The position numbers and the translations under genes are program-made. A DNA stretch of 64,000 bases from positions 1,504,001 to 1,568,000 of the forward strand of contig OZ253580.1 of the NCBI GenBank assembly GCA_965263035.1. The letters run 5' to 3'. Each line of letters begins with the position of its first letter. Position 1 is the stretch's first letter. This stretch comes from Acidobacteriota bacterium. GTDB taxonomy: Bacteria > Acidobacteriota > UBA6911 > RPQK01 > JAJDTT01. Below, in pieces: positions 54,673-64,000 of this stretch. Below the pieces are notes generated by a model. The model searched no databases. It saw only the letters and a program-made list of their open reading frames with translations, and had not been told where the DNA came from.

Positions 54673-54701
54673 TTGACACCTTACTCAGACGTCCATAGTT
54701 T
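54673..54701 (+). promoter_or_regulatory. Sigma70-type promoter
   Basis: TTGACA (54673-54678), 17 bp spacer, TAGTTT (54696-54701), then SD GGAGG and ATG 54721. Confidence 0.6.
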
Positions 54702-54720
54702 GATGCAGGGAGGTAGGCAA

Positions 54721-56376
54721 ATGCAGCAGAGGCGGCTTCGAGGGTCGGATAGAGAGGTCGGTGGATCCCCGACCGGGGCCGGAACCGGCTCACGGTTCGT
54801 TGCGGGCGCCCTTTCGGCATGGCTTGCCTTCGCGGGAATGGCGGCGGCGGGCTCTGCAGGCCTCCTTCATATCGGCGGAAACAAGCAACTTTTCATCGAC
54901 GACCACGTCATCCAGAGTCTCAGCCACGCCAAGCAGATCCTCAACCCGGCCGTCAAACATCCGGCAAACCCCCTCTTGAAGCAGGACCGTCCCTGGGAGG
55001 GTCATTACGTCGGGCTCCAACGGATGATCTACGACCCGGACCGGGGCATGTACCGGATGTGGTACCGGACAACCGGAGCGTTCGAGTCCCAGAAGGGGGG
55101 CGCCGATCGGCTCAGACCCTACCGCTGGGACTGGAGCCTGAAGGACGGAAAAGCGGTCCGCAGCAAGGTGGAGGAGGTCTACGGTTACAAGCAATACGCC
55201 GACGGCCGGGATTGGCTCATCTGTTACGCCACCTCCCGGGACGGCATCCATTGGGAGAAACCGAACCTGGGCCAGGTGGAGTTCGAGGGCTCCCGCGACA
55301 ACAACATCCTACCGCCCGGGACCCTGGTCCCCCTGTTTCGGGACGGGCACGAAACCGATCCCGCCAAGCGCTACAAGTCCATGAGGTCCGAGGGCACGAC
55401 TCCCACCGTCTGGAAGCCGGGAATGACGCCGGGGATGCGGCAAAGCCTCTACTACTCGCCCGACGGCTTCAAATGGACGCCGTACGAGAACAACCCGGTG
55501 ATCGACACCGCCCCCAAGATCGGACGGTGGGGACCCACCTCACACATGGGCTGGGACCCCATCCGGCAGGTCTACGCCGTGTTCATGGAGCAGTGCCTGC
55601 ACCGGGGCTGCCCCCGGGGGCAGCGGATCATCGGCCGGGCCGAGAGTCCCGACATGACCCGATGGACCCCGGATCAGAACGTCCTGATCCAGGACGAGTT
55701 GGATTATCCGGACACGGAGTTCTACTCCATGCCGGTCATGGCCTACGAGGGAATTTACATCGGTCTGCCCTGGATCTTTCGAACAACCAATACGCTCCAT
55801 TACCCCCAACTGGCCTTCAGCCGGGACGGGATCCGTTTCGAGCGTCCGTACCGCGAGCCCTTCCTGCAGGTGGGTGACAAAGGGGATTTCGACGAGAGCA
55901 CCATCTACGTGCACCAGCCCATGGTCCGTGACGGCGAGATCCGGATCTACTATTACGGCGGCAACTGGAGGGGATCCGAGGCGCTTTACGGGCAGGGAGA
56001 CCGGGCCATGTTCGCCGTGGCTCTGGCCACGGTTCGCGAGGACGGGTTCGTCTCCGTGGACGCCGGCAAGATCCACCCCGGAGTCCTCACGACCCGCTTC
56101 CTCAGCTTCGAGGGCCGCCGTCTGGTGGTGAGCCTGGAGGCCGCCAAGCACAACCACGGCTCGGGACGTCCCGAGGTCCGGGTCGAGATCATCGGAAACG
56201 ACCACCATCCCATCCCGGGCTATACGCTGGCCGAGTCCGATCCGGCCCGCGTAACCGGGAAGCACGTCATGAGCTGGCGGGGAAAGACGGAACTGGGGGC
56301 CCTGGCCGGAACCCCGGTGCAGCTGCGCTTCGTGATTCGAAACGCCAAGCTCTTCTCGTTCCAGTTCCGACCCTGA
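54721..56376 (+). CDS. Secreted beta-propeller glycoside-hydrolase-like protein (GH32/43-like, uncharacterised)
   Basis: Signal peptide; QLFIDD, YATSRDGIHWEKP.LG, SPDGFKW, SRDGIRF, REDGFVS, C-terminal LFSFQF. Confidence 0.75.
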   Translation: MQQRRLRGSDREVGGSPTGAGTGSRFVAGALSAWLAFAGMAAAGSAGLLHIGGNKQLFIDDHVIQSLSHAKQILNPAVKHPANPLLKQDRPWEGHYVGLQRMIYDPDRGMYRMWYRTTGAFESQKGGADRLRPYRWDWSLKDGKAVRSKVEEVYGYKQYADGRDWLICYATSRDGIHWEKPNLGQVEFEGSRDNNILPPGTLVPLFRDGHETDPAKRYKSMRSEGTTPTVWKPGMTPGMRQSLYYSPDGFKWTPYENNPVIDTAPKIGRWGPTSHMGWDPIRQVYAVFMEQCLHRGCPRGQRIIGRAESPDMTRWTPDQNVLIQDELDYPDTEFYSMPVMAYEGIYIGLPWIFRTTNTLHYPQLAFSRDGIRFERPYREPFLQVGDKGDFDESTIYVHQPMVRDGEIRIYYYGGNWRGSEALYGQGDRAMFAVALATVREDGFVSVDAGKIHPGVLTTRFLSFEGRRLVVSLEAAKHNHGSGRPEVRVEIIGNDHHPIPGYTLAESDPARVTGKHVMSWRGKTELGALAGTPVQLRFVIRNAKLFSFQFRP

Positions 56377-56678: not shown

Positions 56679-57614
56679 CTACGAGACGAAGGCATTCGAG
56701 CGCTGCTCCCGCAAGGAAAACAGCGCTCCGCCCAGTTGGGGGATGGGGTGTCGGCGACGTCGATATCGACCTTGCTGCCGATAAGTCTCCAGCAGTTGCG
56801 CCACCTTCTCTGCCGGCCCGACGGCCAATCCGTCCGTCAGAAATCGCAAACGCCGGCGAAAAGCTCCGGGACGGGTAAATCCACGTCGCTGCTCCTGATG
56901 GAGGATCCACCGGGGGATCGCGGCCTGGTCCTCCCGGGTGGGGACGGCTCCTCGATAGTACAAGCGAGCCCGGTAACTGCTGTACAGGTCCGTTCCGGGA
57001 TCCGAAGGGAACAGTTCCTCCAGTGGAATCAGGTCTTGGTCCTTGCCGGTGAGTCTCCAGCGGGCCGAGCCCCACTTCCACTGCTCGGGCCTTTTGACCA
57101 GTCCGGCCCGGACGGCATTGAGTTCCACGTAGAGGATGGCATCCTGGACGGCTTGGCGTCCCAGGAGTTCCGGGTTCTTGAAACGATCACCCCCAAAATG
57201 GCCTCGCCGTGCAAACTCGTGGTTGAACCACGTGGCATATTGCCCGTCCAAGTTCGCCATCAGTTTGGACACGTCAAATAGACGCTGGTTGAAAGCCTCC
57301 CATTGGGCGTCGGTCCAACGGGCAGTTTTCACCTCTGCCTGTCGTCCATAAAGTATGTGGGCGCTCTCCCACAACTCCTCGCGGGACAAGGGGCGGGGTT
57401 TCTCAAAATGGACGATGAAGTGGAAATGATTACCCATGATCTGGAAGGCGGCCAAACGACACCGGTAGACAGCCACATAGAACAACATCATGTTCAGGAG
57501 TTTGCGACGGGCTTGCCGGTTTTCAAAGGGGAACCAATCAGTCCAGCCGGTGACTCGATTGGTGAGGTGATAGAAGGCGGCTTCTGAGCTCTTGTGTCGT
57601 GCGGTTCGGGCCAT
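56679..57614 (-). mobile_element. HUH Y1 (IS200/RAYT-like) transposase
   Basis: YHLTNR, MGNHFH (HUH), WFN...RRGH...RFK, YVELNAVRAG (catalytic Tyr), W.WGS; lower-GC flanks. Confidence 0.85.
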
Positions 57615-57738
57615 GGCCACGGTCCTCGGTTCACCGGACTCGGACTCAGCAGGGATGGGTTCGCACCTCTGATGACAACAACGATTCGGATCTGAGAAAG
57701 GCGAAGGAAACTCAAGAAAATCAGCAAATCTAATGACC

Positions 57739-57766
57739 GGAAAAATAGACTGTCCCCTTTTTTTCC
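57739..57766 (-). repeat. REP-like copy upstream of the transposase
   Basis: GGAAAAATAGACTGTCCCCTTTTTTTCC; minus strand AAAGGGGACAGTC matches the 56415 repeat core. Confidence 0.6.
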
Positions 57767-57937: not shown

Positions 57938-59431
57938 TCACTTGAACCGGAAGGAATAGAGATCGGCGTCCTGCAGGACCCAGCGCAGGCGGACCGTCTT
58001 TCCGGCGACTCGCCGGAGGGGTTTCGCACGAACCTTGCCTCCGTAAATCCACCCCGCCTTCCCCTCCAGCTCGTCCCCCCAGATGGGGACCGATTCGGTC
58101 AGTGAGAATCCGGGCACCGGGTTGCCGTTGCGGTCCTGGATCTCCACCTGGATGGAGCCGGCCGCGGAAGTGGAGTAGTTCAGGATCAGGTTCTCCCCAC
58201 TGAACCGGAACGGTTTCGTGATCAGCTCGCCGCCCGGATAGCCGGCGCTGGCGGACACGAAACCGTCCGTCCGCACCACCACGCGCTGTAGGTGAGCCGT
58301 GGGATAAGTGTAGTGCTGAACCGTGTAGAGGGAGATCTCCCCCGGCGCCGTGGGGACGATGCCCCGGGCCACGAAGCCGTTCCGGTGGATCCAGTTGCGC
58401 CGGTTCCTCCCGGGCCGGATGAAGGCTTCCATGAAGCGGTGCCAATGGACCCCGTCCCGGCTGCTCATGAACACGGCATCGGAGAGTCCGGCCCGCTCGC
58501 CGGCAAGGGCGGGATCCAGATGCCGGGGAATCCGGTAGGTCACGAAGCGCTTGGGAAAGGAAAGGTAGATATGGGGAGCGCGAAAATAGGGAACGGTGGC
58601 ATTGGTGTAGAGCTGTTCGGTAGGAGCGTCTCCATAGTCCACCCACCGGCCCTCGGACCATTCGACGAAGTCCTTGGAGGTTGCGTACTTGAGGGTCCGG
58701 ACCCCGTGGAGGAAATCCCGGTAGAGCGCCACGTAGATCCCCCGCTCGCCATCCCAGAAGGCCACGTTGTGGGAGTCGAAGGCGCCGTCGGTGATGACCG
58801 GAACTTCACGCATCCAGCTCCAGCGGATGCCGTCGGGAGAGGACAAGGCCACCAGACCCCGATGGTCCCCGGGCTTGGCGAAGGCCACCGCCTTGTAGCG
58901 GGCCTCGGCCGGCGCCGCCGGATTGTCGTCGCGGAAGGGATTCAGCTTGGCGGCGCCCCGGATCTCCAGGATATTGTTGTCCCGGGAGCCGTTGAACTCC
59001 ACCTGCCCCAATGAGGGACGGGTCCAGTGGACGCCGTCGCGGCTCTCGGCGTAGCAGGAGACCTTTTCGTGGGCGGCGACCCAGGTCTCCCCCGGCTCCA
59101 GCTCCTCCCGGTGGATGTAGTCGACCGCAGCGCTGCCCCGGTAGTACATCCGAAAGATTTCCCCGTCCTTGAAGACCGCCACGTGAAAGGGAATGTTCCC
59201 TTCCCAAGGTTGATCGAAGACGAAGACCTTCTCGCCTCGCTGGGGCTGCTGGACCTCCAGCTCCACCCCATCCATGGATTCGATGAGAGTATCGTCGACG
59301 AACAGCTCCAGACGGTTCCCCAAGTCGGGAACCGGGTCGGAACCGGCAGCCTTTTTCCCGTGACTCGACGCCTCGACGCCAGGCACGCCCATCAGAACCA
59401 GCAACACGAACATCCGCAAAATCGATTTCAT
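57938..59431 (-). CDS. Secreted beta-propeller glycoside-hydrolase-like protein, paralog of 54721..56376
   Basis: Signal peptide; ELFVDD, YAESRDGVHWTRP.LG, SPDGIRW, RTDGFVS, LYSFRF. Confidence 0.75.
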   Translation of the reverse strand: MKSILRMFVLLVLMGVPGVEASSHGKKAAGSDPVPDLGNRLELFVDDTLIESMDGVELEVQQPQRGEKVFVFDQPWEGNIPFHVAVFKDGEIFRMYYRGSAAVDYIHREELEPGETWVAAHEKVSCYAESRDGVHWTRPSLGQVEFNGSRDNNILEIRGAAKLNPFRDDNPAAPAEARYKAVAFAKPGDHRGLVALSSPDGIRWSWMREVPVITDGAFDSHNVAFWDGERGIYVALYRDFLHGVRTLKYATSKDFVEWSEGRWVDYGDAPTEQLYTNATVPYFRAPHIYLSFPKRFVTYRIPRHLDPALAGERAGLSDAVFMSSRDGVHWHRFMEAFIRPGRNRRNWIHRNGFVARGIVPTAPGEISLYTVQHYTYPTAHLQRVVVRTDGFVSASAGYPGGELITKPFRFSGENLILNYSTSAAGSIQVEIQDRNGNPVPGFSLTESVPIWGDELEGKAGWIYGGKVRAKPLRRVAGKTVRLRWVLQDADLYSFRFK

Positions 59432-59452: not shown

Positions 59453-60358
59453 CTACATGCCGAGCCGCCGGCTCGCCGGATCGATGATCCAGAGCCAATC
59501 GTCCGCGAGGAACTCCAGCCTCTGGGCCATCAGGGCGATGCGCCCCATCACCGTGTAGCCGAAGCCGGCCCCGAAGGTGATCATGAGGAACCAGATTCCC
59601 AGGCGCGAGACCCCTCCCACGACCCCCTTGTGCTCGATGGAAAAGAAAAAATAGACCAGACAGGACAAGACTCCGACCACGATGGTCAGATTCTGGAGGG
59701 AGGCCCAAAAGTCGAATCCCTGGGTCCCCACCACCACCAGGGGGAGAATCGTGCTCTGGATCTGCCGGATGAAATCGCTCTGCAGGTAGCCCAAGAGACG
59801 GATCCCCGCGGTGGCCCCGATGAAAAAGGCCAGCGACCAGCGGGAAACCCAGCCCCCGACCGGAGAGAGCCTCATCAACATCAGGACGCTCAACAGCAGC
59901 GGGACCAGGTAGATGAGTTCCTGCTCCTGGGATTCCGGCAGGCCCGGGAGCATCGAACCCCGGACCAGATCCGGGGCCAGCTTCCCGAACAGGTTCTGAA
60001 CGATGCCGGTCCAGAATCCGACGACCATCCAGTAGGCCGCCGAGACCCCGACGAAAATGGCCTCGGCCAGCTTGTAGAACGGATTGTCACCGTAGAGAAA
60101 GGAGAGGATGAAAAGCGTGAAGAGGGCGGCCAACCAAGTCCCCACGGTGCGGGACCAACTCACGCGCACTCCCTCTTCACCCTGCCGCTTGGGATCCACC
60201 CCGACGACCCGGCTCCACGTTTCCTGACCCGGCTCCTGGACTTCCACCGGCTGGTCTTGAACGTAGACCAGTCCCATGCCTCCCGTGGCCAGCCTCACCA
60301 ACAGGTAGATCCCGGCCAAAACCATCAACGTCGTCCAAACCCACCCGGATCGGCTCAT
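59453..60358 (-). CDS. Uncharacterised polytopic membrane protein
   Basis: About 7 TMs; SFLYGDNPFYKLAE, LMITFGAGFGYTVMGR; ATGA overlap with the upstream gene. Confidence 0.8.
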   Translation of the reverse strand: MSRSGWVWTTLMVLAGIYLLVRLATGGMGLVYVQDQPVEVQEPGQETWSRVVGVDPKRQGEEGVRVSWSRTVGTWLAALFTLFILSFLYGDNPFYKLAEAIFVGVSAAYWMVVGFWTGIVQNLFGKLAPDLVRGSMLPGLPESQEQELIYLVPLLLSVLMLMRLSPVGGWVSRWSLAFFIGATAGIRLLGYLQSDFIRQIQSTILPLVVVGTQGFDFWASLQNLTIVVGVLSCLVYFFFSIEHKGVVGGVSRLGIWFLMITFGAGFGYTVMGRIALMAQRLEFLADDWLWIIDPASRRLGM

Positions 60359-61215
60359 GACGTCACCCCCTGACGCCGCTCCCAGAAGTAGATGACGTTG
60401 CCCAGAACGATGAGCAGGATCACCAGCATGTGGGCCAGGAGCTGCGGGCCCATTCGCCGCAGCCCCTCCTGCGCCGTGTCATTGCCTATCAAGTCGGGAT
60501 AGAGGTCGATGACGGCCTGTTCGTATTCGGCCGCAGCCTTGATGGCGGCCAGCATACCGATCAATTGTCCCGGCACATAGGGATACAGCGTCGGGGCCGA
60601 GACTCCCGTCGTACCCCCGACGATCTTCAGGTCGTAGGGGGTCGCGGCATAAAGAATCCACTCCTTGACCCCTGGATAGCCGGCGCTCACGTTGACGATG
60701 AGGTCCATCTGGCGGATGTTTTTCAGGTTTCGAGTCAACGGCAGCTGGTCCAGACTGGCCCCGTCCACGTCGTTGGCGAAGAGTTTCTTCAGGTCTCCCA
60801 CGACGACCTTGATGACCCCCTCGCCGCCGGGGCGAAAACCCAGGTTCACGTAGTCGTGCCCGTACTCGTAGTCGGGAAACTCCCGTTTCAGGAGGTCGAT
60901 GCTCTCCTGAATCAGCGGCCCTCCGGTGGCCCAGAGCGTCAGGAAGTAGAGCTTGTGTTGCTTGTAGGCGCAGTGGCGAACGAAGGCGGCGGCCATGGGA
61001 CTCAGCTCGCCCCGGCTGGCGGGGTCGAAATCCCAGGCCATCAGGACGTCCGAGCCGTCGGGCAACTCCTCGATGGCCGAGCGGACGTTCAGGACCATGG
61101 GCGACGGGCTCTCGGGGAACCGGATTCCGAAGAGGAGCGGAATCAGAATGGACAACAGCATCAGGAAAAAGATCCAGCGCCGGTCCAGGTTGCGAAAGAA
61201 CTCGTTGATCTTCAT
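60355..61215 (-). CDS. Uncharacterised protein, TM-soluble alpha/beta domain-TM
   Basis: DRRWIF, YGHDYVNLGFRPGGE, YPY...GQLIG, AAEYE. Confidence 0.8.
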   Translation of the reverse strand: MKINEFFRNLDRRWIFFLMLLSILIPLLFGIRFPESPSPMVLNVRSAIEELPDGSDVLMAWDFDPASRGELSPMAAAFVRHCAYKQHKLYFLTLWATGGPLIQESIDLLKREFPDYEYGHDYVNLGFRPGGEGVIKVVVGDLKKLFANDVDGASLDQLPLTRNLKNIRQMDLIVNVSAGYPGVKEWILYAATPYDLKIVGGTTGVSAPTLYPYVPGQLIGMLAAIKAAAEYEQAVIDLYPDLIGNDTAQEGLRRMGPQLLAHMLVILLIVLGNVIYFWERRQGVTS

Positions 61216-61218
61216 GGG

Positions 61219-61905
61219 CTATTCCTTCGTTCCCAGATAGGATCGATCGACGCCCAGGAGAATCTTCAGAGAGAGGGAGACCACACCCAGGCCGATGCCA
61301 ATGGTGATGGCCCGGTTCCCCGCCAGGTTGAAGACGTTCATGATGGTGCTGGTGAGATTGTCGAACTGGAGCGCCTCGGGCAGCCATCCCGTCAGGGCCG
61401 TGCCGGCGTAGGTCCGCCCCACCAGTACGATGAAGGCCGTCGAGAGCAGGATGATGGCCTCGGGGTTCTTGGCTCGGAAGGCGCGAAATGCGGCCGAGGC
61501 GATGAAGCAGGCCAGCAGGGCGAACATCGTAGCCCCCAGGGGATAGAAGGAATACTGGTAGATGAACCAGAAAAAGCTTCCCTGCTGAACGTAGTCCCCC
61601 GACCAGGCGAACTGGGCAAACTGGGGACTGGGGTGAACCCCCATCTTCGCCATTCCCACCACCAGCGTCAGAAAGAAGGCGATAACGGTGACGGCCGCGT
61701 AACCCCAGCCGGCCCCCCGGTCCGATATCTTCTTCAGGTTGATCTTCACCAGGTTGGCGCCCCCCAGAATGAAGGCGATGGCGGCCAGGATGTCGAACCA
61801 GATCATGGCCTCCTCGCCCCAGGACTGGGTGTAGGGAACGAAGTGGGCGCCGATGAGGACGAACCCCGTAACCGCGGCAATGAGCAGGGGAAGAGTTCTC
61901 TTCAT
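61219..61905 (-). CDS. Uncharacterised polytopic membrane protein
   Basis: About 6 TMs; PLGATMFALLACFIASAAFRAFRAK, RAITIG, LKILLGVDR. Confidence 0.8.
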   Translation of the reverse strand: MKRTLPLLIAAVTGFVLIGAHFVPYTQSWGEEAMIWFDILAAIAFILGGANLVKINLKKISDRGAGWGYAAVTVIAFFLTLVVGMAKMGVHPSPQFAQFAWSGDYVQQGSFFWFIYQYSFYPLGATMFALLACFIASAAFRAFRAKNPEAIILLSTAFIVLVGRTYAGTALTGWLPEALQFDNLTSTIMNVFNLAGNRAITIGIGLGVVSLSLKILLGVDRSYLGTKE

Positions 61906-61917
61906 GGTGTGCTTTCC

Positions 61918-63138
61918 TTACCAGCCCTGGTTTCCCAGGACGTGATCGGTCAGATAGGCCAGCATCTGGCCCAGAACGGGAGCGTCGGTCAGGTAGGCGG
62001 CAGTGGCCAACAGGCATCCGGCGACCATCAGCGTTCCTCCCAGGACCTTTCCCACGTCCTGGCCCTTGAGGCTGCCCAGTTGGTGGCTTTCCCCGGAGAG
62101 GTAGGCGGATGCGGCGAACAGCTCCTCGCCGATGAGCGTGTAGTCGCACGCCGCCACGAAGAAGGGAAGCTGCGACGGCATGGCGGTTCCGGCCACCTGG
62201 ATCGCGCCGATGGCGTTCCCGGTCTCGGCCAGAATCAGCGACTCGGCGAAGAAGGCGCCCATGTAGAAGCAGGCGGCGGGCCGCTCCCGGAGCATTTTTC
62301 CGGTGACGCCGGCGACGTAGCCAAACTGCTCATCAGTGAGGTAATAGACCGAGTCCTCATTGTATGCATCCGGACGTCCGGCCGAAAGATAGGCTGCCTC
62401 TACGGTTTCCCGGCAGGCCGTCATCACCAGGGAACGGGAGGTAGGCACGTCCAGACGGGCGTCGAACTCGGCCGTCAATCCGGCGACCCGCGACAGGACC
62501 GTGACGCCGGCGAGGGTCTGCATGTCGTTAATGTCCAGAATCCCCGGAACATAGAGGCAGGACCGCCCCATCTCGGTGGCACGGCCCACGGCTTCGTCCA
62601 CCGCTTCCAACCCGGCAATTGGGCGAACCTTCAGCTCACGTCCGCTCCGGGCCAGTTGGATGAAGTAGACGACACTTCCTCCCACGATCAGCAGAATCAC
62701 ACCGAACCAGAGTTGGGAGAAGTCGAAGTACTGCATGACCGGCGTCACCGGATGATCGGTGACGATGGCGGCTGATCGAGCCCCGCCGGGCCCCAACGCC
62801 ACAACCTGGTAAGAGTAGCTGGTTCCCCGCCTGCACCGGTCGTCCTTGAAAGACCGGGTCCGGTACGTCTCTTTTCCGATCTTGATAAACGTTTCTTCCC
62901 CCGATTCCCGCCTCAGGATCTCGTAAGCGACGACCAGCCGTTCCCCGGGCTGGGGCCGGTCGTCGGGGGAGAGCTCCCACTCGATCCGCACCGCCTCCCC
63001 GGCGTCGTTGGGAAAGTCGACGGCCCGCACTTCACCCGGCGGCCGGGGGAGTTGCGCCAGGGCCGCGGAGGCCCCTCCCCAGAGGACGAAACCACCGGCC
63101 AGCACCGACGAGAGAATCGATTTGCCCATTTTGCTCAC
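61918..63138 (-). CDS. Fibronectin type III + DUF6754-like membrane protein
   Basis: Signal, FN3-like (D.PNDAG..V.IEW..S.DD, YEI.R, YSYQVVA), TM, RPIAGLEAVDEAVGRATEMGR, AESLILAETG, ACDYTLIGEELFAASAYLS; GTGA overlap with the upstream gene. Confidence 0.8.
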   Translation of the reverse strand: MSKMGKSILSSVLAGGFVLWGGASAALAQLPRPPGEVRAVDFPNDAGEAVRIEWELSPDDRPQPGERLVVAYEILRRESGEETFIKIGKETYRTRSFKDDRCRRGTSYSYQVVALGPGGARSAAIVTDHPVTPVMQYFDFSQLWFGVILLIVGGSVVYFIQLARSGRELKVRPIAGLEAVDEAVGRATEMGRSCLYVPGILDINDMQTLAGVTVLSRVAGLTAEFDARLDVPTSRSLVMTACRETVEAAYLSAGRPDAYNEDSVYYLTDEQFGYVAGVTGKMLRERPAACFYMGAFFAESLILAETGNAIGAIQVAGTAMPSQLPFFVAACDYTLIGEELFAASAYLSGESHQLGSLKGQDVGKVLGGTLMVAGCLLATAAYLTDAPVLGQMLAYLTDHVLGNQGW

Positions 63139-64000
63139 GCCTCGATCAACTCCACATTGGCCCGCGGCACGACCAGCCGCCGGCCCGATTCCGATTGAAC
63201 CTCCAGCACCCGCGCCCGGGACCCGGAGCCCAGGACCTGGGGTTCGGCCGGAAGCCGAGAGACCACGCCGATCAATCCGAAGTGAGGGTCCCGGATCACT
63301 CGAACCGGTGTCCCCAGTTCCAGCCTGCCGGCAGCACGCGTCTCGTCCACCTCCGCCGCGTCCCCGGGTGGCGACGGAATGACGATTTCCGGCCGCAGGA
63401 CTCCGGCCCGAATCTGAGTCGCGCCGTTGACCGATGCCGGATCCCCTTCCCGGGAGGCCAACAGTTGGAAGGTCTTGCGGGCCATGGCGATTCGGCCGAA
63501 CCCCTCGGTGATGATCAGGGTCGTCGCCACCGGTTCCGATCCGGTGATCGCGACCCCCAAGTCGTATCCGAGGATCTGCCGCAGGTCCGCGTCGTCCATG
63601 CCTCCCGAAACCAGGGCCGAGATACCGATCCGGAAGGCCTTGCGGACGGCTTCTCCCGTCATTCGGCTGCCGCCGACCACGACGGCCCCCTTCATCCCCT
63701 CGTCGAGCCGGCCGGCGGTCAAATCTTCCTCCTCGTCCCGGCAGGCCATGCGGACGGGTCCGAAGGCCTCCCCGCCGATCCCGAAGATCCCCTGGATGAA
63801 AGTGGCGTCCGACTCCAGCACGACCCCCTCTCCCGGGATCTCTTCGACCACCTGTCCGGCCAGGTAGGCCAGGACCCGGACCGGGATCGGCTCCCCCCGG
63901 AGGATGACCTGCCCCGTCACTTGGGAAATGGACTCGATGGTCCCGGCGACCTTGGCCCTGCACTCGGACTTGAACAACCCGAAAATCCCCTTGGTCCGAG
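63135..64000 (-). CDS. Uncharacterised soluble protein with C-terminal KOW-like domain (5' end outside the window)
   Basis: GTIESIS.VTGQV, IQGIFGIGGE, GYDLGVAITG, ITEGFG, GATQIRAGVLRPE, GTPVRVIRDPHFG.IG.V, VPRANVE. Confidence 0.8.
   Translation of the reverse strand, partial: RTKGIFGLFKSECRAKVAGTIESISQVTGQVILRGEPIPVRVLAYLAGQVVEEIPGEGVVLESDATFIQGIFGIGGEAFGPVRMACRDEEEDLTAGRLDEGMKGAVVVGGSRMTGEAVRKAFRIGISALVSGGMDDADLRQILGYDLGVAITGSEPVATTLIITEGFGRIAMARKTFQLLASREGDPASVNGATQIRAGVLRPEIVIPSPPGDAAEVDETRAAGRLELGTPVRVIRDPHFGLIGVVSRLPAEPQVLGSGSRARVLEVQSESGRRLVVPRANVELIEA

Follow-up and report, generated by a model that had tools for sequence, protein, structure and literature searches.

A seven-gene operon joining a GlmL-family ATPase to a four-protein membrane module probably encodes a new kind of ATP-driven envelope machine

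In the Type VII ATP-binding cassette (ABC) systems MacB, FtsEX and LolCDE, ATP hydrolysis in the cytoplasm moves exported domains, and no transmembrane channel is involved. To our knowledge, no GlmL-type actin-fold ATPase has so far been reported to drive a membrane complex; a full-text literature search found no paper on a DUF6754/PF13941 system or on a GlmL-type membrane complex, and no solved structure covers such a system. GlmL/MutL itself is presented, in the available part of its source, as a chaperone that reactivates glutamate mutase (PMC4682846), and the available part of a second source describes other ATPases of the actin/Hsp70 fold (ASKHA) as reactivating corrinoid proteins (PMC7317905). 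Here we describe an operon, Z-A-B-C-D-E-F, that sets a GlmL-family ATPase beside a four-protein membrane complex. It lies in the genome of an Acidobacteriota bacterium (GCA_965263035.1; one contig, 6.2 Mb) and reaches past the end of the window, by which we mean the whole 64,000-nucleotide stretch of DNA that was analysed (OZ253580.1, positions 1,504,001-1,568,000). Because the four-protein membrane complex matches no studied transporter or secretion system, the operon probably encodes a new kind of ATP-driven envelope machine. We lean towards an ATP-coupled, modular inner-membrane machine, with uptake or force transmission as its likeliest task.

The original prediction, made from the window alone, described an uncharacterised membrane system encoded at 59453-64000 by a translationally coupled operon of at least five genes. 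Five co-oriented open reading frames (ORFs) were found there on the minus strand, as claimed, and the junctions agree as well: B and C are separated by 5 bp, or overlap by 4 bp (GTGA) if C starts at an alternative GTG at 63138; C and D are 12 bp apart, D and E 3 bp, and E and F overlap through ATGA. The remainder of the operon was read from host DNA reaching past the window end (L002), for which positions are given as window-equivalent. There, A and B are spaced by 15 bp, and the start of A (MKQID...) overlaps the stop of Z via ATGA. All seven genes are thus joined by 3-15 bp gaps or 4-bp overlaps, and these gaps and overlaps uphold translational coupling. Z is a small conserved protein that is also encoded directly upstream of A in 41 other loci of a genome set, for which one genome per species was scanned and the best 80 loci were kept from 196 stretches with relatives of C. 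Because of this conservation and the overlap of the Z stop with the A start, the operon comprises seven genes, five of which fall in the window, with B cut by the window end. Its genes are as follows.

Z: window-equivalent 66092-66439 (L002 8093-8440), upstream of A and outside the window; ORF of up to 115 amino acids (aa).
A: window-equivalent 64275-66095 (L002 6276-8096), upstream of B and outside the window; 606 aa.
B: 63135 to beyond 64000, minus strand; 374 aa, with 288 codons inside the window and the gene running to window-equivalent 64259.
C: 61918-63129, minus strand; 403 aa from ATG.
D: 61219-61905, minus strand; 228 aa.
E: 60355-61215, minus strand; 286 aa.
F: 59453-60358, minus strand; 301 aa.

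These genes are real and under purifying selection: the dN/dS ratio of B to F is 0.08-0.19 against six congeneric loci, and each of B to F has hundreds to thousands of relatives.

A GlmL/MutL-like actin-fold neighbour, as the original prediction described for similar gene strings, is present just beyond the window end. This protein, A, matches the Pfam family PF13941 ('MutL') with an E-value of 1e-127 and 427 bits (cut-off 27) over model positions 1-450, the full length of the model. Its scores lie below all the curated NCBIfam cut-offs, those of NF040745 (GlmL; 237 against 475 bits), NF040744 (Or-4; 214 against 600) and TIGR01319 (169 against 204), and its C-terminus is longer than that of GlmL by ~120 residues. 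PF13941 and hydantoinase-A were the sole families to match A, with no actin/MreB/FtsA-type match in Pfam, and A found no relative among the sequences of solved structures, either as a profile or as a single sequence. Across 27 sequences from several phyla, the mean column identity of A is 76%, and the motifs DCGSTTTK, DIGGATTD and SGGVLSHAP are invariant. Its sequence marks A as an ASKHA ATPase (actin/Hsp70 fold) of the GlmL family in which the nucleotide-binding motifs are intact. Among the genes within ~6 kb on either side of the cassette in the host genome, none belongs to a B12-dependent mutase or B12-binding family.

B is an obligatory partner of A and is often fused to it. At ten loci (L039, L049, L050, L052, L058, L069, L071, L078, L085 and L072), A and B share one reading frame of ~990-1040 codons, and 55 of the 59 longer B relatives are A-B fusions, that is, proteins of 957-1062 aa with PF13941. 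Those fusion relatives that have a name carry the label 'glutamate mutase L', which is misleading for A-type genes; distant fusions (29-39% identity) come from Ozemobacteraceae, Aegiribacteria and Cloacimonetes. We built a tree of A by a quick search on 53 rows, sampled from the best 80 matches to the host protein. Of the fused loci, all except L072 and L078 lie in one clade (support 99) of Fidelibacterota, Gemmatimonadota and metagenome-assembled genomes, within which the unfused L047, L055 and L086 also fall; fused L072 (Thermoguttaceae) sits elsewhere, and L078 was left out of the tree. A single apparent B-C fusion (P0046) was not counted, as this one sequence from one contig may be a read-through or an error.

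Neither Z nor B matches any Pfam or NCBIfam family, and structure models were made with AlphaFold 2 (AF2) for B and E. The model of B has a mean predicted local distance difference test score (pLDDT) of 84.7 and shows three domains. Residues ~49-123 are predicted to form a barrel-sandwich hybrid, resembling RnfC (8ahx_C; Z-score 7.4, 65 residues aligned) and NqrA (4u9o_A; 7.3, 64 aligned). A swivelling beta/beta/alpha domain at residues 152-296 is closest to the mobile domain of enzyme I of the phosphotransferase system (PTS; 2wqd_A, Z-score 9.6, root-mean-square deviation (rmsd) 2.7, 107 aligned), followed by rifampin phosphotransferase (9.1), RraA (9.0) and the small subunit of aconitase X (8.2). 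The same middle domain aligns with diol dehydratase reactivase (2d0o_A; Z-score 6.9, rmsd 3.3, 112 aligned), of which 1nbw_A was also found by Foldseek; overall, Foldseek on the B model gave the same fold families, weakly. Residues 312-374 adopt a KOW/SH3-like fold in the model, with Z-scores of 7-8. The earlier description of B as 'KOW-like' therefore holds for the fold of its last ~60 residues and does not extend to the Pfam KOW family, since PF00467 scored 13 bits against a cut-off of 22.3 (E-value 0.098); the end of B is KOW-like in predicted shape, with family membership unsupported by the Pfam score. A profile of B searched against the sequences of solved structures gave weak KOW matches alone, with E-values of 0.18 and above. 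Among the 100 invariant columns of B (28 sequences) there is no histidine or cysteine, and a PTS-like phosphoryl relay is therefore unlikely.

The membrane side of the operon consists of four proteins. The original prediction had counted three membrane subunits beside a protein joining FN3 to DUF6754; the membrane proteins are real, and their count is four, since C, D, E and F all belong to it. Both domains proposed for C were found. DUF6754 (PF20539) matches residues 132-379 with an E-value of 2e-119 and 397.9 bits (cut-off 27), and a profile of 28 orthologues matches a solved FN3 domain of titin (3lpw_A) at profile positions 24-134 with an E-value of 7.6e-5, the summed E-value over the multi-domain titin chain being 8e-17. 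C alone had no match to Pfam fn3 at E-values up to 0.1, and its profile beyond FN3 found no solved relative; for the DUF6754 part, the ESM Atlas held no usable match. By hydropathy, C is ordered as a signal peptide, FN3, a membrane helix (~142-160), DUF6754 and a second helix (~359-377). Its mean number of lysines plus arginines rises from 2.0 before the first helix to 4.0 after it (86 sequences), and because these positive charges follow the helix, DUF6754 is predicted to lie in the cytoplasm. The same 86 diverse sequences share 23 invariant columns, among them six carboxylates (E296, E302, D329, E335, E336 and D358). The proposed 'extracytoplasmic binding module' is thus borne out as far as a signal peptide and an exported FN3 domain are concerned, while binding, and the transporter or signal-transducing role attached to it, stay at the level of interpretation. 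A co-fold prediction of B with residues 136-403 of C, run without controls, scored 0.00 and weighs neither way on binding.

D has six membrane helices with its N-terminus inside, and positive charges alternate cleanly along it (hydropathy; 23 sequences). Helix 4 carries, at its cytoplasmic end, the invariant motif SAAFRAFRAKN, and the alignment of D (A4) has a mean column identity of 68%. D matches no Pfam or NCBIfam family, and its profile found no solved relative. In loci of the Thermoguttaceae/Pirellulales type (L054, L059, L072, L074, L076, L079 and L090), D is enlarged to 515-674 aa by an N-terminal extension of 300-450 residues, for which no family reached its gathering score and one weak YscD-like BON match was seen (E-value 0.007). 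E consists of a membrane helix, a Rossmann-like alpha/beta domain of ~220 residues and a further membrane helix. In its AF2 model (pLDDT 86.8, predicted template modelling score 0.84), the domain is three-layered and Rossmann-like, with generic matches alone: the best is 1kjn_B (Z-score 9.6), followed by a flat list at ~8 that includes RecJ DHH, sirtuins, KTN/RCK, transhydrogenase dIII and GT-B halves. Positive charges average 2.9 before and 1.0 after helix 1 of E, and 3.2 and 3.5 around helix 2; the domain probably lies on the outer side of the membrane. F is polytopic, with five or more helices, a variable stretch after the first of them (hydropathy; alignment A5) and the conserved motifs YFFFSxEHKG, GWISRWPLAF and TVMGRIAL.

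E and F are without a Pfam or NCBIfam family; single scans of 27 E and 26 F members at E-values up to 5 yielded nothing beyond scattered one-off matches. Against solved structures, the profile of E produced a lone transmembrane-helix match (E-value 1.5) and that of F no relative; F also had no look-alike in the named clusters of the ESM Atlas. Profile-profile comparison of D with F and of E with C revealed no shared homology beyond one membrane helix. In agreement with the original prediction, Pfam and NCBIfam identified no ABC, tripartite ATP-independent periplasmic (TRAP), energy-coupling factor (ECF) or Rnf/Nqr component among the seven proteins. In particular, no ABC ATPase domain (PF00005) or ABC membrane domain was present in any of the seven. 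C to F had no match at E-values up to 0.1 to components of ECF (EcfT/S), TRAP (DctQ/DctM/DctP) or tripartite tricarboxylate transporters (TTT; TctA/B/C), and no Rnf/Nqr family matched them, the ~65-residue barrel-sandwich of B alone aligning with RnfC and NqrA.

We examined how the genes travel together in the genome set and in a second, metagenome set. The genome set covers Acidobacteriota/Aminicenantes (8 loci), Planctomycetota (most loci), Fidelibacterota/Neomarinimicrobiota, Gemmatimonadota and Verrucomicrobia (one). The metagenome set was seeded with the beta-propeller subfamily of C and yielded 79 loci, from which one duplicate of the genome set was dropped; 41 of the loci are at least 9 kb long. 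The gene order is kept across at least five named phyla, A and C co-occur, and C-D-E-F always travel together. Of the 64 genome loci that extend 3.5 kb or more downstream of C, 61 have D, E and F after it, the exceptions being L057, L076 and L080; of the 59 with room upstream, 56 have A and then B ahead of C, all but L031, L057 and L080. In the metagenome set, D, E and F follow C in 53 of 54 C copies with room, and 34 of the 41 loci contain C, D, E and F; A or B was present in 15 of the 41 and Z in 7. In one Neomarinimicrobiota locus (L071, 5368-12194), D-E-F lie ~6.8 kb downstream of C, which suggests an insertion into the operon. Outside the window's own phylum, the median identity to the window proteins is 74% for A, 62% for B, 59% for C, 64% for D, 52% for E and 55% for F. 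The genes are therefore syntenic in other genomes and match no characterised complex over their full length, either of which results, had it been the opposite, would have spoken against a novel system.

The system is widespread in uncultured bacteria and forms a large, unusually conserved family. At E-values up to 1e-30, the C family has 1119 representatives of 50%-identity clusters, some of them FN3-only giants; for E, the 8000 scored candidates include at least 3767 clusters (90% identity). The window's phylum seldom carries the cassette: 8 of the 301 genomes sampled have it, representing 4 of 186 genera. It was found in none of 14 well-known control genomes. Of 31 related genomes, 11 have both PF13941 and PF20539, encoded side by side, and the other 20 have neither. 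C of the eight acidobacterial loci is 86-93% identical to the window copy. In the A tree, the acidobacterial clade (support 100) falls within an otherwise Planctomycetota group; its sister is L021 (support 92), inside a 20-row group (support 94). This placement is consistent with acquisition of the acidobacterial copy by transfer, with the root and the sampling leaving alternatives.

The membrane part of the cassette is modular. Two or three C-D-E-F modules stand in tandem in 18 of the 41 metagenome loci, with three diverged modules in L097, L105, L116, L119, L126, L130, L136, L145, L146 and L148. The 30 pairs of tandem copies, taken from ten loci, agree best in DUF6754 (median identity 53%), then in F (46%), D (39%) and E (36%), and least in the exported part of C (28%). 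In 19 long relatives of C, the exported part is a PQQ-like beta-propeller in 9, an FN3 array in 2 and unrecognised in 8, while DUF6754 always scores 360-417 bits. The constancy of DUF6754 against the divergence of the exported part is as expected if the cytoplasmic domain meets a shared partner.

RNA data bear on whether the operon is expressed as a unit. In four metatranscriptome runs of one study, 85-87% of sampled sequence words were present, and RNA-library contigs ~99.6% identical to the locus span all of L002 1000-8510, which is the whole operon. Each of the four runs has a contig end at L002 8505-8510, 65-70 nt ahead of the Z start. These contigs are compatible with one transcript, although assembled contigs fall short of proof. 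A consensus scan for promoters and terminators gave no excess over shuffled expectation, and no Rfam family or tRNA lies between Z and the next upstream gene. That interval holds a plus-strand ORF of 347 aa (L002 8505-9594, window-equivalent 66504-67593), between Z and the next minus-strand gene and matching no Pfam family. The region's only sigma-70-like site (TTTACA-16-TAGAAT) stands just before this ORF, where the depth of the RNA-library contigs is two to three times that of the operon.

Taken together, the reading that we favour would work as follows. A, B and the small Z would form a cytoplasmic energising module, in which ATP binding and hydrolysis in A would drive a domain movement; the swivelling domain of B is of the kind that moves between sites in phosphoenolpyruvate (PEP)-utilising enzymes and in diol dehydratase reactivase. 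The movement may be relayed to the cytoplasmic DUF6754 of C, the likely docking site, and across the membrane via D and F. The working end would be extracytoplasmic, comprising the exported FN3 of C and, probably, the Rossmann-like domain of E. The exported parts would set specificity, and one energiser may serve several diversified C-D-E-F modules. The likeliest task would be uptake or extraction of an envelope or extracellular substrate, which would make the machine either an importer or, like MacB/FtsEX, a transmitter of force.

Several observations weigh against this scheme. The link between A-B and the membrane module is suggested by gene order, co-occurrence and fusion, and neither A nor B was seen within 10 kb in 26 of the 41 metagenome loci, so that the modules can be encoded apart. 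The relatives of A that have been characterised, as far as the available part of the source describes them, reactivate B12 enzymes in a chaperone-like role (PMC4682846) and are not motors of membrane complexes. The soluble domain of E has a generic Rossmann-like fold in the model and could equally be cofactor- or nucleotide-binding or catalytic, and charge leaves its side undecided, with helix 1 pointing outward and helix 2 balanced. The RNA evidence consists of assembled contigs of one study, for which DNA carry-over is possible. Nor is there a clue to a substrate: no neighbour recurs across lineages, and 23 loci (~423 kb) contained no riboswitch or other Rfam family apart from a lone 16S rRNA fragment in L169.

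Some of the same observations suit a different kind of complex. In what we regard as the main rival, though an unlikely one, the membrane proteins would be a cofactor enzyme or a redox- or ion-coupled complex; A-B would be no motor and would instead act, in the manner of GlmL/DdrA, as an ATP-dependent chaperone for loading, exchange or repair of the cofactor, and the Rossmann-like domains (DUF6754 in C and the domain of E) would hold, for example, a corrinoid or a nucleotide. Such a role would fit the membership of A in the GlmL family (PF13941, E-value 1e-127; NF040745, 237 bits), whose known relatives are reactivases in the available parts of the two sources (PMC4682846, PMC7317905), and it would fit a middle domain of B of the type found in diol dehydratase reactivase (2d0o_A, Z-score 6.9; 1nbw_A). 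The domain of E likewise resembles nucleotide-binding domains carried on membrane proteins, with Z-scores of 8.3 for transhydrogenase dIII and 7.8-8.4 for KTN/RCK, and DUF6754 keeps invariant carboxylates and arginines. However, these fold matches are at the level of a common arrangement, and the seven proteins contain no B12 mutase, radical-SAM, Fe-S, haem or flavin family. The invariant columns of C include no histidine and no DxHxxG-type motif, no cobalamin riboswitch was seen in the 23 loci, and tandem modules with diverging exported parts fit diversified specificity better than one enzyme. An improbable alternative is a lipid machine, in which A-B would power the flipping, export or insertion of phospholipids or polyprenyl-linked intermediates. 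It draws on lipid genes that stand beside the cassette in three different arrangements in the genome set. In the Fidelibacterota/Neomarinimicrobiota-type clade, the cassette is immediately preceded on its own strand by genes for CdsA (5 of 5 annotated loci) and a lipid kinase of the YegS/DAGK type (3 of 5); in Planctomycetaceae L024 and L035, UppS-CdsA lie 0.7-3 kb downstream, CdsA also occurring in L054; and in 13 Planctomycetota/Phycisphaerae loci PlsX-FabH-FabD-FabG-FabF follow directly downstream. CdsA-like genes occur in 20 of the 80 genome loci overall. Yet relatives of CdsA, UppS, PlsX, FabH, FabD and DagK were absent within 10 kb in all 41 metagenome loci, which are the more diverse and independent set, and no lipid genes were found around the window's cassette or in L019, L065, L086 and L050. 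We therefore consider the lipid association to be lineage-bound and of little weight; it is confined to one subfamily, may reflect conserved housekeeping gene order, and was rejected as a general property.

Less probable again is a transmembrane sensor, whose exported domains would perceive a cue and whose DUF6754 and A-B would act as a nucleotide-dependent switch. Exported scaffolds that bind proteins or glycans and vary in type (FN3, beta-propeller), joined to a cytoplasmic domain that does not change, would suit it, as would the resemblance of the E domain to regulatory KTN/RCK domains (Z-score ~8); but the seven proteins include no output domain (kinase, cyclase or DNA-binding), no regulator is conserved beside the cassette, and some sixteen membrane helices, including two polytopic subunits that stay 55-64% identical between phyla, go far beyond the needs of a sensor. 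We give a slightly lower chance to a cytoskeletal or division-linked system, in which A would polymerise like actin, MreB or FtsA and, anchored by the membrane proteins, would act in envelope growth or in division. The conservation of A across phyla (76% mean column identity) is as extreme as that of cytoskeletal proteins, and the cassette adjoins ftsZ-ftsQ-murC-murG on the opposite strand in L105, L116, L119 and L145, and tolQ-tolR-tolA-tolB-cpoB in L097, L115 and L160. Such division and cell wall (dcw) and Tol neighbourhoods, however, are limited to 3-4 loci each, A belongs to the GlmL/hydantoinase branch and lies outside the actin/MreB/FtsA/ParM branch, and a core division function would hardly be as rare and patchy as the cassette (8 of 301 genomes; 11 of 31 close relatives). 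It is very improbable that the cassette is a diverged member of a known transporter class (ABC, ECF, TRAP, TTT, PTS or Rnf/Nqr) that sequence searches missed. The barrel-sandwich of B does align with RnfC/NqrA and its middle domain with the mobile domain of PTS enzyme I, and one relative (P0040) has a precomputed RnfC_N match; against this, neither the seven proteins nor single members of E and F match those systems in Pfam or NCBIfam, there is no P-loop ATPase and no Fe-S or flavin motif, B lacks an invariant histidine or cysteine, and no relative among solved structures was picked up by profiles of A, B, D, E, F or the part of C beyond FN3.

Other genes near the cassette vary from lineage to lineage. 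A bPH-domain membrane protein precedes Z in 29 genome loci and was not found in the host genome by one query. The neighbours in the metagenome set include oligopeptide-type ABC ATPases (7 loci), a cohesin/dockerin protein (5), PPDK (4), dcw genes (3-4) and Tol-Pal (2-3); oligopeptide-type ABC ATPases also lie downstream of F in three Fidelibacterota-type loci. In the window, 21 bp separate F from the next gene, which encodes a secreted protein of 497 aa (57938-59431, minus strand). All 8 congeneric acidobacterial loci have this gene behind F (88-94% identity), and it stands nowhere else beside the cassette. Its family is huge and separate, with at least 7944 of 8000 scored clusters at E-values up to 1e-10, all 'hypothetical' and two with a precomputed PF22847; being genus-confined beside the cassette, the gene was set aside as a part of it. 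A 29%-identical paralogue of 567 aa is encoded at 54673-56376 on the plus strand; neither protein matches Pfam, and the 497-aa protein has no solved relative. Between the two paralogous genes lies a long ORF (56679-57764, minus strand), whose C-terminal part resembles the IS200-like Y1 transposase PF01797 (E-value 1.6e-4; 22.3 bits against a cut-off of 23) and which may be a RAYT-like or degenerate element. On the other side of the operon, a 652-aa fusion is encoded at L002 10168-12126 (window-equivalent 68167-70125, minus strand), comprising a double zinc ribbon, a weak PRTase-like stretch, FTCD_N (E-value 1e-63) and FTCD (1e-20). This is an unusual formiminotransferase architecture; DksA, RsfS, a NadD-like protein and Obg lie upstream on the same strand.

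If the favoured machine is an energised transporter or a force transmitter, it would embody a new energy-coupling principle and would account for genes now labelled 'hypothetical' or misnamed 'glutamate mutase L' in abundant uncultured groups, marine Planctomycetota and Marinimicrobia among them. A bolder version, which we put forward tentatively and consider rather doubtful, is that it represents a new class of primary-active membrane machine, in which an ASKHA ATPase and a swivelling partner take the place of a P-loop ATPase. One such energiser would drive several interchangeable four-subunit modules, and the exported domains of these would determine the substrate taken up or the target acted on. 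If true, this class would be an independent answer to ATP-driven work at the cytoplasmic membrane, alongside ABC, ECF and P-type systems.

A comparison with described systems places the cassette apart from each of them. A shares with GlmL/MutL and Or-4 a full-length PF13941 and the ASKHA motifs, and fused relatives even bear the name 'glutamate mutase L'; unlike GlmL, it has no adjoining mutase gene, always travels with B and the membrane module, and is, in our judgement, far more conserved than an accessory chaperone would be. With the diol dehydratase reactivases DdrA/GdrA it shares an ASKHA ATPase working with a swivelling beta/beta/alpha domain. In DdrA, however, that domain is inserted in the ATPase, whereas here it lies in a separate or C-terminally fused protein, flanked by barrel-sandwich and KOW-like domains; sequence similarity between DdrA and A/B is undetectable, and a dehydratase or microcompartment context is lacking. 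RnfC/NqrA and the PEP-utilising enzymes share single domains with B and nothing more, as B has no Fe-S motifs, no nearby Rnf/Nqr subunits and no invariant phosphoryl-carrying histidine. The Type VII ABC mechanotransmitters, to which no sequence or fold relation was found, may serve as a working analogy. ECF and ABC importers differ in that the cassette has no P-loop/ABC domain, EcfT or S component; its ATPase is of the actin/Hsp70 fold, and each membrane module has four subunits. The likeness to these importers is one of layout, with one cytoplasmic ATPase module per genome or locus facing one to three diversified membrane modules, the ATPase-facing part of the cassette being the most conserved and the exported parts the least.

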